From NCBI GenBank assembly GCA_965222815.1, contig CBDCUS010000013.1:1837302-1869301 (forward strand): a stretch of DNA of 32,000 bases, written 5' to 3'. Source of the stretch: Candidatus Scalinduaceae bacterium (lineage in GTDB: Bacteria; Planctomycetota; Brocadiia; Brocadiales; Scalinduaceae). Of the stretch, positions 3,822 to 8,694 are shown piece after piece. Each line of letters opens with the position of its first letter. The stretch's first letter is position 1. The notes below the pieces were generated by a model that saw nothing but the letters and a program-made list of their open reading frames with translations, searched no databases and was not told where the DNA came from. The position numbers and the translations under genes were made by a program.

Positions 3822-3912
3822 GTTGTCCCCCACCCCTTCAATTTTGACCACTGGTTTTTTTGGGAGGTGTTTTACAACTTGATCCGTTCTCAACATTTTA
3901 GCTTTGTTAGAC
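3822..3912 (-). repeat. attC-like cassette-junction repeat, copy d
   Basis: + strand GTTGTCCCCCACCCCTTCAATTTTGACCACTGGTTTTTTTGGGAGGTGTTTTACAAC (3822-3878), a hairpin with GTTGT/ACAAC outer pairs. A - strand GTCTAAC (3912-3906) lies 42 nt upstream of the core, at the same offset as the R''-like box of copy b. No GTT box found on the 3' side. Confidence 0.4.
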
Positions 3913-4095: not shown

Positions 4096-4190
4096 GTTTT
4101 AATCTTAACCATCTTATTCTTGGAATTTCCAAGGATTTTCTTTTTTTAATAATTTGATTAAAACTCTATCTTTTGGCTGTTTTTGTATTG

Positions 4191-4457
4191 TTAGATGCCT
4201 TTATCATTAACAGGTGACAATTTAAAGTTCATAAATTGATCTGAGCCGAATCTCTCCTTACCCTCAGCAAACTTCTCTAGTGGTACTTCCAAGCTATGAA
4301 GCATTTCAGATAGATGCTGAATAACATCTGACAGCATTAGCAAACGATTAGCCAACTCAAGTCGAACTCGATGGATTTCTCCGTCAGGTAATCGCTCTAG
4401 TAGATCTACCACAGGTCCTACAACCCGGCCATAGGCTGTTCCAAGATTCAACATCAT
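4191..4457 (-). CDS. Hypothetical 88-aa ORF; probably the C-terminal part of the upstream HEPN-like gene in the -1 frame
   Basis: ORF track. Its frame stays open upstream through the 41-nt gap and into ORF 4499-4888 (...CEKNQGAYGTLSWVVGAGEEHVTKPMMLNLGTAYGRVVGPVV). There is no separate Shine-Dalgarno sequence. Confidence 0.45.
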   Translation of the reverse strand: MMLNLGTAYGRVVGPVVDLLERLPDGEIHRVRLELANRLLMLSDVIQHLSEMLHSLEVPLEKFAEGKERFGSDQFMNFKLSPVNDKGI

Positions 4458-4498
4458 TGGCTTAGTGACATGCTCCTCTCCTGCACCGACAACCCAAC

Positions 4499-4888
4499 TT
4501 AGAGTTCCATAAGCACCTTGGTTTTTTTCGCAATACCAGCTAATTCCTGATCGAGGTGTTGAGCAGAATTACGCATATCTGTAACCACTTCAGTACGACG
4601 AATAAAAAGTTTGTAGACATGATTGTGTTTAATACCAGGCGCCATGCGAAGTACAGACCTAAATCTATGAACAGCGTCAATAAATGTCCAGGTGTGTCGT
4701 ATTGTTTTGACGAATTCTCTTGGTTGGTCAGCCTCCTTATCTTTTGAGAGTAAATGTAGCTCACTAATAAGATCGGAATATGCTTGTCCAGCCATTTCTG
4801 CAGAAAGTCGCAAAGCGTCTAAAAACACTATTTGCTTTCGGCTCAAACCATGGGGGAGACGTCTTAGAACGGAATCCGGTTTAATCAT
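4499..4888 (-). CDS. HEPN-like protein (Rx4H motif RNSAQH), 129 aa as annotated
   Basis: ORF track. R106-N-S-A-Q-H111, encoded at 4573-4556, fits the HEPN R[NHQD]xxxH ribonuclease motif and lies late in an all-helical ~125-aa region. The assignment rests on this motif and its position only. Confidence 0.5.
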   Translation of the reverse strand: MIKPDSVLRRLPHGLSRKQIVFLDALRLSAEMAGQAYSDLISELHLLSKDKEADQPREFVKTIRHTWTFIDAVHRFRSVLRMAPGIKHNHVYKLFIRRTEVVTDMRNSAQHLDQELAGIAKKTKVLMEL

Positions 4889-4910
4889 CTTTTATACGTA
4901 TTGTTGAGAC

Positions 4911-5037
4911 ATATAACGACTAAAGTGAGGTGCGCCGTATAGCAAATAAAACAAACAACATAAATAAAATAAGAAAAGAATCTGACAACGTAGAAACCGC
5001 ACGTGATAAAGGCGTCAACTCCAGTTACTCGTTAGGC
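4911..5037 (-). other. attC site of cassette 1 (canonical)
   Basis: On the - strand: R'' GCCTAAC (5037-5031) ... R' GTTATAT (4917-4911). The arms GCCTAACGAGTAACTGGAGTTGACGCCTTTAT and ATACGGCGCACCTCACTTTAGTCGTTATAT pair at about 24 of 32 positions, with single-base bulges. R'' is the exact complement of the cassette start G|TTAGGC at attI. Confidence 0.7.
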
Positions 5038-5078: not shown

Positions 5079-5348
5079 TTATGAAAAATATTTTATTTTT
5101 ACTCCTGTACCGTTGCAAGAAGTGCAATTATCGCTTACAGTTTCACCAGTTGCATAGCCAGTGTTGTTGCAAACCTCACAATTTACACTGATCATTTCAT
5201 GTTCTGAAGCACCTCCAGATCCAGCAATTGCCCCATTATATCCACCCCATCCTTTACACCTAGGGCAAGTATCCCCGTTATTACCAAAAAAAGTTATTTC
5301 TCCAGTACCATTACAATCATCGCATTGGTTATCTGTCTCGTTACTCAT
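5079..5348 (-). CDS. Cysteine-rich miniprotein, 89 aa, four CxxCxGxG motifs (DnaJ zinc-finger-like); first cassette
   Basis: ORF track. Motifs: CDDCNGTG, CPRCKGWG, CEVCNNTG, CTSCNGTG. GGGAGGTGG lies 4 nt upstream of the ATG. Confidence 0.7.
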   Translation of the reverse strand: MSNETDNQCDDCNGTGEITFFGNNGDTCPRCKGWGGYNGAIAGSGGASEHEMISVNCEVCNNTGYATGETVSDNCTSCNGTGVKIKYFS

Positions 5349-5581
5349 TTTCCACCTCCCAACAAATGGTTAATTAGTTTTGGTAAATCAGAAATAAGTA
5401 TGATTTAGAAAAAATTGTAGTAACAATGAAAGCAAAAAGTCTTTAATGTTGCTACAAATATCAAGACCCTAATTTCCGTACATCAAGGAAGCACACAAAG
5501 AATCTGTTAAATTTATTTTCCATGCTATGCTCTCTGATTTTATGCCTAACAAGTTATTCTATAGTTTCCGTATAGTCACGA

Positions 5582-5664: not shown

Positions 5665-6984
5665 ATGATAAGTATTCCATCTGAAATTTCTGTTTGTTTT
5701 AATTCTGCTTTGGCCAAAAACAGGATTCCCAAAGAGTATCAGAACCATTATAGAAAATGGTTACGATATTATCTTGATTTTTGCATAAAGTATAATTTCG
5801 AAAGCATTCATCCAGAAAGCCTACAGAACTTTTTGAGAAAGTTGGGGGAAAAACGCCAGACAAGGGAGCAGCAAAAGCAGGCTTCTCATGCAATATCTTT
5901 ATATTACAAAATAGCTCCTACCAGAACGATACCTGATCAGAAGATAAGGTCGGGTGGGTTTCAGAGTGAACAAAATGCTTCAGAAAAAGAAAAATTGTCA
6001 GGCGAAAGTCAGGCATGGCAATCAGCTCTTGATAATCTTACTTCAGAAATCAAGATACGACACTATTCACCCAAAACACTGAAGACGTATACTCTGTGGG
6101 TCAAGAAATTTCAGGCCTTTACACGATGCAAAGATACGTTGTTATTGTCTTCAAACGACGTAAAAGAGTTTTTAACTTTTCTGGCTATTAAGCGGAAGGT
6201 ATCCGCCTCAACCCAAAATCAGGCTTTTAACGCCCTTTTGTTTTTTTACCGGCATGTCATCAAAAAGGATTTTGAGAATTTAAAGGATACTCCAAGGGCT
6301 AAGAGAAAACGTTATATACCCGTTGTTTTATCACGGGAAGAGATAGATGCAATTTTTGAAAATCTTTTATATCCGTATGATTTAGTCGCCAAGCTTTTGT
6401 ATGGATGTGGATTGAGATTGTTTGAATGCGTTAACCTCCGTGTTAACAATTTTAATTTTGATGCATGTATATTAACTGTACATGACGGCAAGGGAAAAAA
6501 GGATAGAACGGTTCCTCTGCCGGAGGCAATCCTGCCGGAGCTGAAAGCACATATGAAGCGGGTAAAAAATCTCCATCAAATAGACCTGGATGCAAATTAT
6601 TCCGGTGCTTTCCTGATTGACATGTTGGATAAGAAGTACAAGAATTGTGCTAAAGAGTTGGTTTGGCAGTGGTTTTTCCCTGCAAAGACATTAACCTTAG
6701 TTCCGGAGACAGGTGAATATCGACGGTATCATCTGCATGAATCTCATGTGCAGAAAGCCATAAAACGTGCTGTTGGTAAGTCAAAGATATGTAAGCGCGC
6801 TTCTTGCCATACGTTTCGCCATAGCTTCGCCTCTCATCTGTTGAAAGCCAACTATGACATACGTACTATTCAGGAACTGCTGGGGCATAGCGATGTCAGG
6901 ACTACAATGATTTATACCCATACGATAAAGAGTCAGACAGTAAAAGAGGCAAAGAGTCCACTTGATTTCTCATCTGAAGTGTAG
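5665..6984 (+). CDS. intI: Integron integrase IntI with an extra ~118-aa N-terminal domain
   Basis: The tyrosine-recombinase catalytic set is visible: R in GCGLRLFE, K in DGKGKKDR, HxxR in HTFRHSFASHLL, H in LLGHSDV, Y in MIYTH. It carries the IntI-specific insertion GAFLIDMLDKKYKNCAKELVWQWFFPAK...YRRYHLHESHVQKAIKRAV. That insertion is colinear with my remembered IntI1 segment [27 protein letters not shown]...RRHHMYDQTFQRAFKRAV. The C-terminal SPLD is also present. Confidence 0.9.
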   Translation: MISIPSEISVCFNSALAKNRIPKEYQNHYRKWLRYYLDFCIKYNFESIHPESLQNFLRKLGEKRQTREQQKQASHAISLYYKIAPTRTIPDQKIRSGGFQSEQNASEKEKLSGESQAWQSALDNLTSEIKIRHYSPKTLKTYTLWVKKFQAFTRCKDTLLLSSNDVKEFLTFLAIKRKVSASTQNQAFNALLFFYRHVIKKDFENLKDTPRAKRKRYIPVVLSREEIDAIFENLLYPYDLVAKLLYGCGLRLFECVNLRVNNFNFDACILTVHDGKGKKDRTVPLPEAILPELKAHMKRVKNLHQIDLDANYSGAFLIDMLDKKYKNCAKELVWQWFFPAKTLTLVPETGEYRRYHLHESHVQKAIKRAVGKSKICKRASCHTFRHSFASHLLKANYDIRTIQELLGHSDVRTTMIYTHTIKSQTVKEAKSPLDFSSEV

Positions 6985-7212: not shown

Positions 7213-8694
7213 TTACATGACATGCAGTTCGCTCACCTTGCGAAAATGGTAACCGTAAATGGCAAGCCTTACCGACAGGGGAAACAGTTTTCTATGATGA
7301 ATAAACGTCCATAACAGAAGATCCCAAAATTGTACACGTTCCTTGCCGATGATTCCAAGATGAAAGAAAGAACGAACCAAGCCTAGGATATGATCTAGCT
7401 CTACTTTAACCTTAATCTTCGGTGCCTTGTACTCTCTCAAGAATGTTTTTACTCGCTGGTAGTAGTTTTCGGGAGAATAGATGTGTCTTAAGATACTCTT
7501 ATAGCCATCTCTGCAGGTATCAATATCCATTTTGTTAGGGATAATGTTTGTAGTTCCATCAATGTTATCACCTGACATCCGCCCAAGCAGACGTCCCTCC
7601 TTCTTTAAACGGTCGTAGAGTTTTGTACCATATGGTGCTTGCAGGAGGCCAATCATGGCCATTACGACACCGCTCTTCTGGATAAAATCAATTTGACGTT
7701 GAAAGATGGAAGGTGTATCGCTGTCAAAACCGACAATGAAACCTGCCTGTACCTGTAAGCCCGCTCGCTGAATCCGTTGTACGTCTTTAACGAGTTCACG
7801 GTTATTATTCTGTTTTTTGCCACACTCAACCAAACTATCTGTATCAGGGGTTTCTATTCCCACAAAAACCGCGTCAAAACCCGCATCGGACATCATCTGC
7901 ATCAGCGGTTCGTCATCAGCTAGATTGATTGAGACCTCTGTATGAAAGGGCAGAGGAACGTGTTCTGCTTGCCACTTAATCAGTGCAGGTAACAGCTCCT
8001 TCTTGAGGGCCCTTTTGTTTCCAATGAGATTGTCATCAACAAAGAAGACTGGGCCACGCCACCCCAGATCATAAAAACTATTTAACTCGTTGATAATTTG
8101 TTCAACAGTTTTTGTGCGTGTTCGTTGTCCAAAGAGGGCAGTTACATCGCAAAATTCACATTGGTAGGGGCAACCCCGCGTATACTGTATACTCAATGAT
8201 GCGTACCGTTTCATATCAATCAGATCCCATTGAGGAGCAGGTGTTTCACGAATGTCAGGATATTGGGTCGTCGTATAAATCCGTTTAGGACAACCATTTT
8301 CCAAGTCTTCCAGAAACCCTGGAAGTGTCAACTCTGCTTCATTGAGGATAAAGTGATCAACGTCCTCAAATTGGTTATGTTCACTCGTAAATAGTGGTCC
8401 TCCGGCAACCACCGTAACACCCGCTTTTTTGCACCTTTCAATTAATTGGCGGGCCGAAGTTCGTTGTATGACCATACTCCCAATAAAGACATAATCCGCC
8501 CATGCAAGATCTTGATCCATAAGCTTCGAAACGTTGACATCAATAAGACGTTTTGACCAACTTGACGGAAGCATTGCAGCAACAGTCAGCAATCCCAATG
8601 GAGGGAAGGAAGCCTTTTTTCGGGTAAACTTGAGGGCGTGTTTGAAACTCCAAAATGTATCGGGAAACTCTGGGTATAGAAATAGTATGTTCAT
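7213..8694 (-). CDS. B12-binding-domain radical SAM protein (DUF4070-type C-terminus)
   Basis: It has an N-terminal cobalamin-binding-like region (ILFLYPEFP...PPLGLLTVAAML), the CxxxCxxC cluster motif in YTRGCPYQCEFCD, and is 493 aa long. Confidence 0.75.
   Translation of the reverse strand: MNILFLYPEFPDTFWSFKHALKFTRKKASFPPLGLLTVAAMLPSSWSKRLIDVNVSKLMDQDLAWADYVFIGSMVIQRTSARQLIERCKKAGVTVVAGGPLFTSEHNQFEDVDHFILNEAELTLPGFLEDLENGCPKRIYTTTQYPDIRETPAPQWDLIDMKRYASLSIQYTRGCPYQCEFCDVTALFGQRTRTKTVEQIINELNSFYDLGWRGPVFFVDDNLIGNKRALKKELLPALIKWQAEHVPLPFHTEVSINLADDEPLMQMMSDAGFDAVFVGIETPDTDSLVECGKKQNNNRELVKDVQRIQRAGLQVQAGFIVGFDSDTPSIFQRQIDFIQKSGVVMAMIGLLQAPYGTKLYDRLKKEGRLLGRMSGDNIDGTTNIIPNKMDIDTCRDGYKSILRHIYSPENYYQRVKTFLREYKAPKIKVKVELDHILGLVRSFFHLGIIGKERVQFWDLLLWTFIHHRKLFPLSVRLAIYGYHFRKVSELHVM

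Follow-up and report, generated by a model that had tools for sequence, protein, structure and literature searches.

The window analyzed here, a stretch of 32,000 nucleotides (nt) from a Candidatus Scalinduaceae bacterium (contig CBDCUS010000013.1, positions 1,837,302 to 1,869,301 of the forward strand), carries in an integron cassette array a minus-strand open reading frame (ORF) of 129 codons, at window positions 4499-4888, which a first inspection of the DNA (the original prediction) had taken to encode an orphan HEPN ribonuclease. This ORF is very probably the 5' part of a recently broken gene, whose frame was shifted after residue 123. The locus as a whole is best explained, in our tentative judgement (a probability of roughly 0.45, with the proposed ribonuclease mechanism included), as the broken copy of a HEPN-like, self-contained effector carried as a single-gene cassette. 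The notion of an intact orphan has to give way, since what the 129 codons specify is a truncated piece of a gene whose frame has shifted.

The ORF does run from ATG to TAA, and direct reading places the predicted sequence RNSAQH at residues 106-111 (nt 4573-4556). Its product is composed of a helical N-terminal part (residues 1-123), followed by six out-of-frame residues and the stop codon. An initial homology search returned six relatives, three of which continue past the region of this stop into sequence that the window encodes in its next ORF (4191-4457) and in the open stretch upstream of that ORF; no stop interrupts the -1 frame at the junction. A profile of the resulting family matches the genome once, as two abutting pieces covering profile positions 1-124 and 115-227. 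The second piece is the C-terminal part of the gene (4191-4522, minus strand, in the -1 frame), the translation of which (P0002) aligns to family positions 115-227 and comprises a beta-sheet module, a long C-terminal helix and a tail. The whole pseudogene thus occupies 4191-4888 on the minus strand, about 233 codons when the missing base is counted, and its homologues span both frames. That ORF 4191-4457 is not a gene of its own fits with the lack of any Shine-Dalgarno-like sequence before its ATG at 4457, as read from the DNA.

Comparison with intact alleles assigns the lesion to a run of seven adenines (A7; 4522-4528, minus strand), the site of a 1-nt deletion. The window reads GCG AAA AAA ACC at 4531-4520, where the intact allele P0172 on metagenome contig L063 reads GCG GGA AAA AGC CAG GGT and a relative on contig L005 reads GCA AAA AGA AGT CAG GGT; relative to the intact alleles one base has been lost in the window, and G-to-A changes have made the site an A7 run. 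The allele P0172, which is near-identical and encodes 232 amino acids, is present on contigs (L063 and L064) from two metagenomes. Ratios of nonsynonymous to synonymous substitution (dN/dS) against the relative on L005 come to 0.10 (N-terminal part) and 0.13 (C-terminal part); both halves have therefore been under purifying selection for most of their history, which argues that the break is recent. The true product is predicted to contain some 232-237 residues, with the helical part followed by a beta-sheet module and a further long helix.

Conserved residues, predicted fold and HEPN membership

The gene belongs to a large family: an exhaustive profile search gave 1002 cluster representatives with the threshold at E<=1e-3, and 474 when it was tightened to E<=1e-10. 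Members are mostly 230-250 residues long and cover the whole profile; those that carry a name are all called hypothetical, none with a Pfam domain, and no significant Pfam, NCBIfam, PADLOC or PHROG family was found for either half of the gene or for the family members. One candidate, P0010 (1045 residues, with 15 repeat matches), was rejected as a repetitive false positive that is devoid of the motif.

Conservation was counted in a family alignment of 119 sequences, in which the HEPN-like R-[N/H/D]-x-x-Q-H motif (R106-N-S-A-Q-H111 in the window; 4556-4573, minus strand) is the best-conserved feature. R106 is invariant (119/119), H111 is found in 118 and Q110 in 106 members, while position 107 is occupied by N (82), H (28) or D (6), together 116 of the 119. 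A second conserved charged pair, D71-x3-R75 (4664-4678, minus strand), lies in predicted helix 2, as placed by the alignment and the model, with D71 present in 118 and R75 in all 119 sequences. G128 is likewise invariant (119/119) and belongs to a further set of nearly invariant residues that also includes S6, P12, W67, W132, G150 and E201. In a single sequence such a motif is weak evidence, because R[NHQD]xxxH is expected by chance 0.023 times per 129 residues (0.13 times for the looser Rx4H; both estimated from this genome's own ORFs of at least 200 amino acids). Its evidential weight derives instead from its retention across the family, R in 119/119 and H in 118/119.

A full-length AF2 model, for which the relative P0009 served as target and the 119-sequence alignment as input, was obtained at high confidence (pLDDT 94.8, pTM 0.90). 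The predicted elements are, in order, helices 17-48 and 55-82, which form a long hairpin, a loop with a short helix 90-98, and a helix 100-110 (helix 3) that bears the motif R106-H111 at its end; these are followed by a helix 112-121, four strands between 129 and 185, and a long helix 186-208. Modelled on the same family alignment, the 129-residue product itself is all-helical, as had been predicted for it (H17-49, H55-82, H90-98 and H100-128; pLDDT 90.5). Homodimer prediction for the full-length protein gave ipSAE values of 0.85, 0.85 and 0.86, versus 0.00 for three controls. Among solved structures, the mark applied is attained by 20 of 30 proteins that are pairs of one chain and by 1 of 23 that are single chains. 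The predicted interface involves D24, R27, W67, D71-72, R75, 109-110, 112-113, 125-161 and 214-224. R106 and H111 are themselves absent from the predicted contact list, in which the residues flanking H111 do appear. The models thus point to an intact protein that would fold as a helical hairpin, an insert, helix 3, a beta module and a long helix, and would assemble as a symmetric homodimer.

How far these features identify a HEPN domain can be judged against the published definition, which describes two alpha-hairpins with frequent inserts between helices 2 and 3, a conserved R-x4-6-H motif at the end of helix 3 with a polar N, D or H directly after the R, and a further acidic residue within helix 2, usually in the form E-x3-[KR] (PMC3710099, Anantharaman et al. 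2013). Across its 119 aligned members the family displays the R-x4-6-H motif with the polar residue after R, and in helix 55-82 it has the acidic-x3-basic pair in variant form, D71-x3-R75, with D in place of E. The predicted order of helices also fits that of the four-helix core, in that H17-48 and H55-82 are followed by an insert containing H90-98 and by H100-110 with the motif; helix 4 (112-121) is short and gives way to the beta module. The proposal that RNSAQH stands where HEPN ribonucleases place their catalytic motif is thus borne out as to its conservation and its position at the end of predicted helix 3, but not by any homology or fold match to HEPN proteins. We consider the family HEPN-like in signature and layout, its membership of the superfamily being unproven.

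Three weak leads point toward HEPN, none of them significant. Of the 50 best Foldseek matches of the helical part, a single one is a HEPN structure, the integron-cassette HEPN protein 3jrt, at rank 21 (E 1.2, TM 0.43, 109 aligned columns, 16% identity; not significant). HEPN_AbiU2 occurred in 52 of the 100 nearest named ESM-Atlas clusters, with scores near 0.70 that the tool grades as leads only. Finally, the only PADLOC models matching more than one member were tm_HEPN (four members, best E 0.0016) and Csx28 (three members); among ten sampled members no match to either model is shown. These PADLOC matches are near noise, because the tm_HEPN model also matches control genomes.

A considerable body of observations weighs against the assignment. 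The original prediction had looked to HEPN-clan profile matches and to a four-helix HEPN bundle for its confirmation, and the outcome is largely negative for HEPN: none of the 119 members has a HEPN-family Pfam match at E<=5, and the full protein is predicted as an alpha+beta fold rather than a plain four-helix bundle. Profile-profile comparison with hhalign gave probabilities of 0.09% for HEPN_AbiU2, about 1% for HepT and 1.1% for HEPN_LA2681 (at most 1.3% over all three) with the motifs unaligned, in a comparison that covered three families by thin alignments built from genome matches (7, 29 and 2 sequences, respectively). Among HEPN families in the defining paper, HHpred probabilities are 75-98% (PMC3710099). 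Sequence searches of the PDB with both family profiles returned noise only, and Foldseek searches with the full model and the helical part against the PDB, and against BFVD, gave no match at E<0.3 and nothing significant, so that structural similarity to solved HEPN domains was not found. The match to 3jrt is within the noise of helical bundles. At the genome level, tm_HEPN was found in none of the four family-carrying genomes but in three control genomes at E<=10. In the models, moreover, the conserved D and R of helix 2 lie in the dimer interface and may be kept for pairing rather than catalysis, the short helix 4 leads into a beta module foreign to canonical HEPN domains, and the distance between the two R...H motifs is judged from the contact list only.

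Two further observations bear on the family. One member, the metagenome protein P0132 (495 residues), is fused to C-terminal TPR repeats. Fusions to TPR are also reported for HEPN_LA2681, but a link suggested by this likeness was not borne out by hhalign (1.1%). Directly downstream of the member P0013, a 215-residue ORF (P0160, L008:910-1557) lacks any Pfam match and has its own R-x4-H (RSTLVH); it may represent a second HEPN-like orphan.

The most substantial rival to the explanation we favour is accordingly that the family is not HEPN at all but has an undescribed alpha+beta dimeric fold, its R, H, D and R serving a ligand, some other chemistry or the dimer, and the R-x4-H being convergent or coincidental. 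We regard this as a serious possibility, though one we would not adopt. It accommodates the failure of HMM and profile-profile searches to find HEPN, the want of a significant PDB or BFVD neighbour for a model of very high confidence, the lack of a name on any of the nearest ESM-Atlas structure clusters, and the placement of D24, R27, W67, D71 and R75 together in the predicted interface; the nearly invariant S6, P12, G128, W132, G150 and E201, in addition, are without counterpart in the HEPN definition. What it must attribute to chance or convergence is the full HEPN signature occurring together: an invariant R, N/H/D in 116/119, H in 118/119, a position at helix 3's end and an acidic-x3-basic pair in helix 2, in a protein whose predicted dimer has motif-flanking residues in its interface and whose occurrence resembles that of mobile toxins or defence elements made up of one gene. 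A bolder formulation is that the family, some 1000 clusters when grouped at 50% identity, represents enzymes with a dimeric alpha+beta fold that is undescribed and has no solved relative. Its composite R/H site would then define a novel kind of toxin or defence effector borne on cassettes, either non-HEPN or a HEPN domain so reshaped by a beta module before the last helix as to form an architecture of its own; this we consider rather unlikely as it stands.

HEPN dimers, including those of Csm6, RNase L, Ire1 and HepT, unite two R...H motifs, and HEPN ribonucleases are metal-independent and leave 2',3'-cyclic phosphate ends. If the HEPN-like explanation is followed, the two R...H motifs of the predicted homodimer would form a metal-independent ribonuclease site of this type at the dimer interface, and the intact protein might act as a self-contained toxin or abortive-infection-type effector encoded by a one-gene cassette, with the beta module perhaps serving as its regulatory or sensing part.

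The break in the reading frame

The one-base deletion that left A7 at 4528-4522 shifts the frame after residue 123 of the approximately 233-codon gene, and the copy in this genome would be dead. The 129-residue fragment lacks interface residues 125-161 and 214-224, about one third of the interface, and the complex predictor gives it a homodimer score of 0.00 and a pLDDT that falls to 52-58. With this portion of the interface gone and no dimer predicted, the product made in this genome is probably inactive. As the window copy is broken, its local biology would be modest.

It strikes us as improbable that the organism's own gene is whole and that a base of the homopolymer was merely dropped in sequencing or in building the consensus. 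Homopolymer indels are the commonest assembly error, the site is a homopolymer, and elsewhere the gene shows no damage and matches an intact allele at about 96% identity. Nonetheless, Logan contigs from four public runs (two samples of one study), assembled independently, match the window letter for letter and without gaps over 4100-5000, and the break is present in reads because the contigs of all four runs carry the same A7. As a single study supplied these runs, and the assembly may itself have been made from them, a systematic platform error would be shared by them.

It is slightly harder still to credit a functional split, in which -1 ribosomal slippage, transcriptional slippage or phase variation between A7 and A8 would keep a toxic effector low or switchable. 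Slippage on A runs is established for IS elements and dnaX, and the A7 homopolymer belongs to this slippage-prone class of sequence. The downstream frame is intact to its natural stop, beyond a junction open in -1, and its C-terminal part has been under purifying selection. On the other hand, the run is missing from intact relatives, which here read GGAAAAAGCC (L063) and AAAAAGAAGT (L005); it arose with the deletion and so does not represent a recoding site that has been conserved. In the zero frame its phase is G-AAA-AAA-C, which departs from the canonical X-XXY-YYZ heptamer, and a very recent break would likewise leave dN/dS low.

Least credible of all is that the 129-residue ORF is itself a complete, stand-alone minimal HEPN toxin: although the fragment holds H1-H3, the motif and the start of H4 and is folded confidently by AF2 on the family alignment, full-length members among the cluster representatives have 230-250 residues and span both frames, its last six residues are out of frame, and the interface residues and predicted dimer are lost from it.

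Other broken copies were encountered among the relatives. P0208 is interrupted by an IS66 insertion (L062:6001-8229), P0007 has an internal deletion removing the motif region (L001:8001-8408), and a further copy is divided between two overlapping ORFs, P0213 and P0012, on a contig of 3x coverage (L061:5712-6429). With the window's frameshift included, four copies have been disrupted, each independently. Repeated breakage of this sort fits cassette decay or selection against a harmful gene.

Integron context and relatives elsewhere

The location of the gene on an integron cassette, as originally predicted, is upheld by an adjoining integron integrase, a same-strand array, a GTTAGGC site and the presence of relatives in other arrays with different neighbours. 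The integrase gene (5665-6984, plus strand; 439 residues) is divergent from the cassette array and matches TIGR02249 with 390.8 bits, against a cut-off of 265, over residues 122-434; Pfam Phage_integrase and Phage_int_SAM_4 also match. Its N-terminal extension places about 120 extra residues (window 5665-6020) ahead of the usual IntI core. From 5348 down to position 2, all ORFs of the window are on the minus strand. A candidate core site, GTTAGGC (5543-5549, minus strand), lies on the attI side between intI and the first cassette, and forms an inverted match with GCCTAAC (5031-5037, minus strand), which, judged by its sequence and this inverted repeat pairing, is a box of the R'' type where cassette 1 ends, and lies upstream of the cassette under study. 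The sequence ATCTAAC (4196-4190), a box of the RYYYAAC type, overlaps the stop of the gene.

The extent of the mobile unit is indicated by a block (4155-4918, minus strand) that in pairwise DNA alignment is about 96% identical to metagenome contig L063. Because the flanks on both sides are unrelated between the window and L063, this block represents a shared mobile unit. It starts at CGTTATATG (GTTATAT at 4917-4911), some 30 nt before the ATG, and ends about 36 nt past the stop, a length too short for a whole attC. Folding of the two junction regions as attC hairpins was no better than for shuffled sequences (z-scores -0.34 to +0.40).

No MNT-type antitoxin or other recognizable partner adjoins the gene in the window, in agreement with the original prediction, and the relatives have no constant partner. 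The first cassette of the array (5079-5348, minus strand) encodes an 89-residue protein of CxxCxGxG zinc-finger repeats, with sub-threshold matches to Anti-TRAP and the DnaJ central domain. Elsewhere in the window a direct repeat occurs in four copies (703-726, 1065-1105, 2060-2100 and 3824-3864), with the minus-strand core CCAGTGGTCAAAATTGAAGGGGTGGGG; there is one copy per gene block of the array, and the centre of the repeat is conserved rather than its ends, unlike typical attC sites.

The family is sporadic in distribution. The window's genome has a single copy, the family was found in 4 of 401 sampled genomes of the phylum, and not one of 27 further genomes from the same taxonomic family carries a member. 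The closest members are from sediment metagenomes, and one close relative comes from a metagenome-assembled genome labelled Thermodesulfobacteriota. Close relatives (60-70% identity) also reside in cassette arrays. On L058 the homologue comes fourth among the ORFs that follow an IntI-type integrase, its array also containing helix-turn-helix and BrnT/CopG toxin-antitoxin cassettes; L055-57 show an array with an integrase fragment, Mrr_cat and HicB; L059 presents a run of small same-strand ORFs; and on L063 and L064 the gene unit of the window is set between unrelated flanks. More distant members are found beside toxin-antitoxin and restriction-modification genes (L022, L023) or a RadC gene (L021).

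A two-gene system was considered and rejected: the ORFs downstream of the homologues in L055, L058 and L059 are mutually unrelated, and the upstream ORFs are without Pfam domains. In a survey of L005-9, L023-24 and L055-59 no adjacent nucleotidyltransferase was found, L022 alone having a DUF6036 nucleotidyltransferase. The L022 member (7862-8626, within L022:5978-11893 of genome G394) is located in a defence-type island, with a Gp49/HigB-like toxin and a HI1420-type antitoxin upstream and, downstream, the DUF6036 nucleotidyltransferase at a distance of 243 nt, beyond which lie genes for an N6/N4 DNA methylase and a PD-(D/E)XK nuclease. In the array of L055, L056 and L057 the 89-residue P0214 (L055:10717-10986) starts 3 nt past the stop of the member P0186 and could be a local partner; it was not found beside other family members. 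Downstream of P0009 (L005:4752-5282, also L006 and L007) is a 176-residue ORF with a weak match to the IS200-like Y1 transposase, which may be of the REP-associated tyrosine transposase type.

Comparison with known systems

Integron cassettes are a large reservoir of genes without known function, among which several single-gene HEPN-type cassettes have recently been shown to be anti-phage. Against this background the present family, large, wholly unannotated, confidently modelled without a structural neighbour, and combining a HEPN signature with a predicted dimer, is a clean and cheap candidate for a direct test.

The resemblance to HepT-MntA (HEPN-MNT) is that of a small HEPN-type R-x4-H toxin acting as a dimer; the difference is that no nucleotidyltransferase adjoins the gene in the window or in most relatives, and that the hhalign comparison with HepT gave a probability of only about 1%.

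The proposed novelty of the context does not hold, as HEPN genes on integron cassettes are already known, from 3jrt and from Esos and Taranis in Vibrio integrons. The first of these, Vpc_cass2 (PDB 3jrt), is recognized as an integron-cassette HEPN protein (PMC3710099) and shares with the family the single-gene cassette setting and the HEPN-type motif; in contrast to the approximately 235 residues and beta module of the family, it is an all-helical protein of 166 residues, and derives from Vibrio (Gammaproteobacteria). Esos and Taranis are single-gene HEPN-type defence cassettes of Vibrio chromosomal integrons (bioRxiv 10.1101/2024.07.02.601686), and a HEPN AbiU2 cassette protein of V. mimicus has been reported to be a dimer (bioRxiv 10.64898/2026.03.17.712381); for all three, anti-phage phenotypes have been measured and abortive infection has been proposed (bioRxiv 10.1101/2024.07.02.601686; bioRxiv 10.64898/2026.03.17.712381). 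The likeness here is of one-gene cassettes in which a HEPN-like domain is the only recognizable feature. Those proteins, however, have recognizable HEPN, Abi_C or AbiU2 domains, whereas the present family is known from sequence and models, with an hhalign value of 0.09% against AbiU2.

Compared with the HEPN superfamily at large (PMC3710099), the family lacks a profile or fold match, has D rather than E in helix 2, inserts some 65 residues of beta sheet after a short helix 4 before a further long helix, and maintains the additional invariant residues W67, G128, W132, G150 and E201. It agrees with the superfamily in the invariant R-x4-H, the N, H or D following the R, the motif's place where helix 3 ends, behind a long hairpin and insert, the acidic-x3-basic pair in helix 2, the predicted dimer with the motif region in its interface, and the residence on mobile elements among toxin-antitoxin and restriction genes. 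Should the HEPN assignment prove true, the superfamily would extend to an architecture that is missed by standard profile and fold searches.

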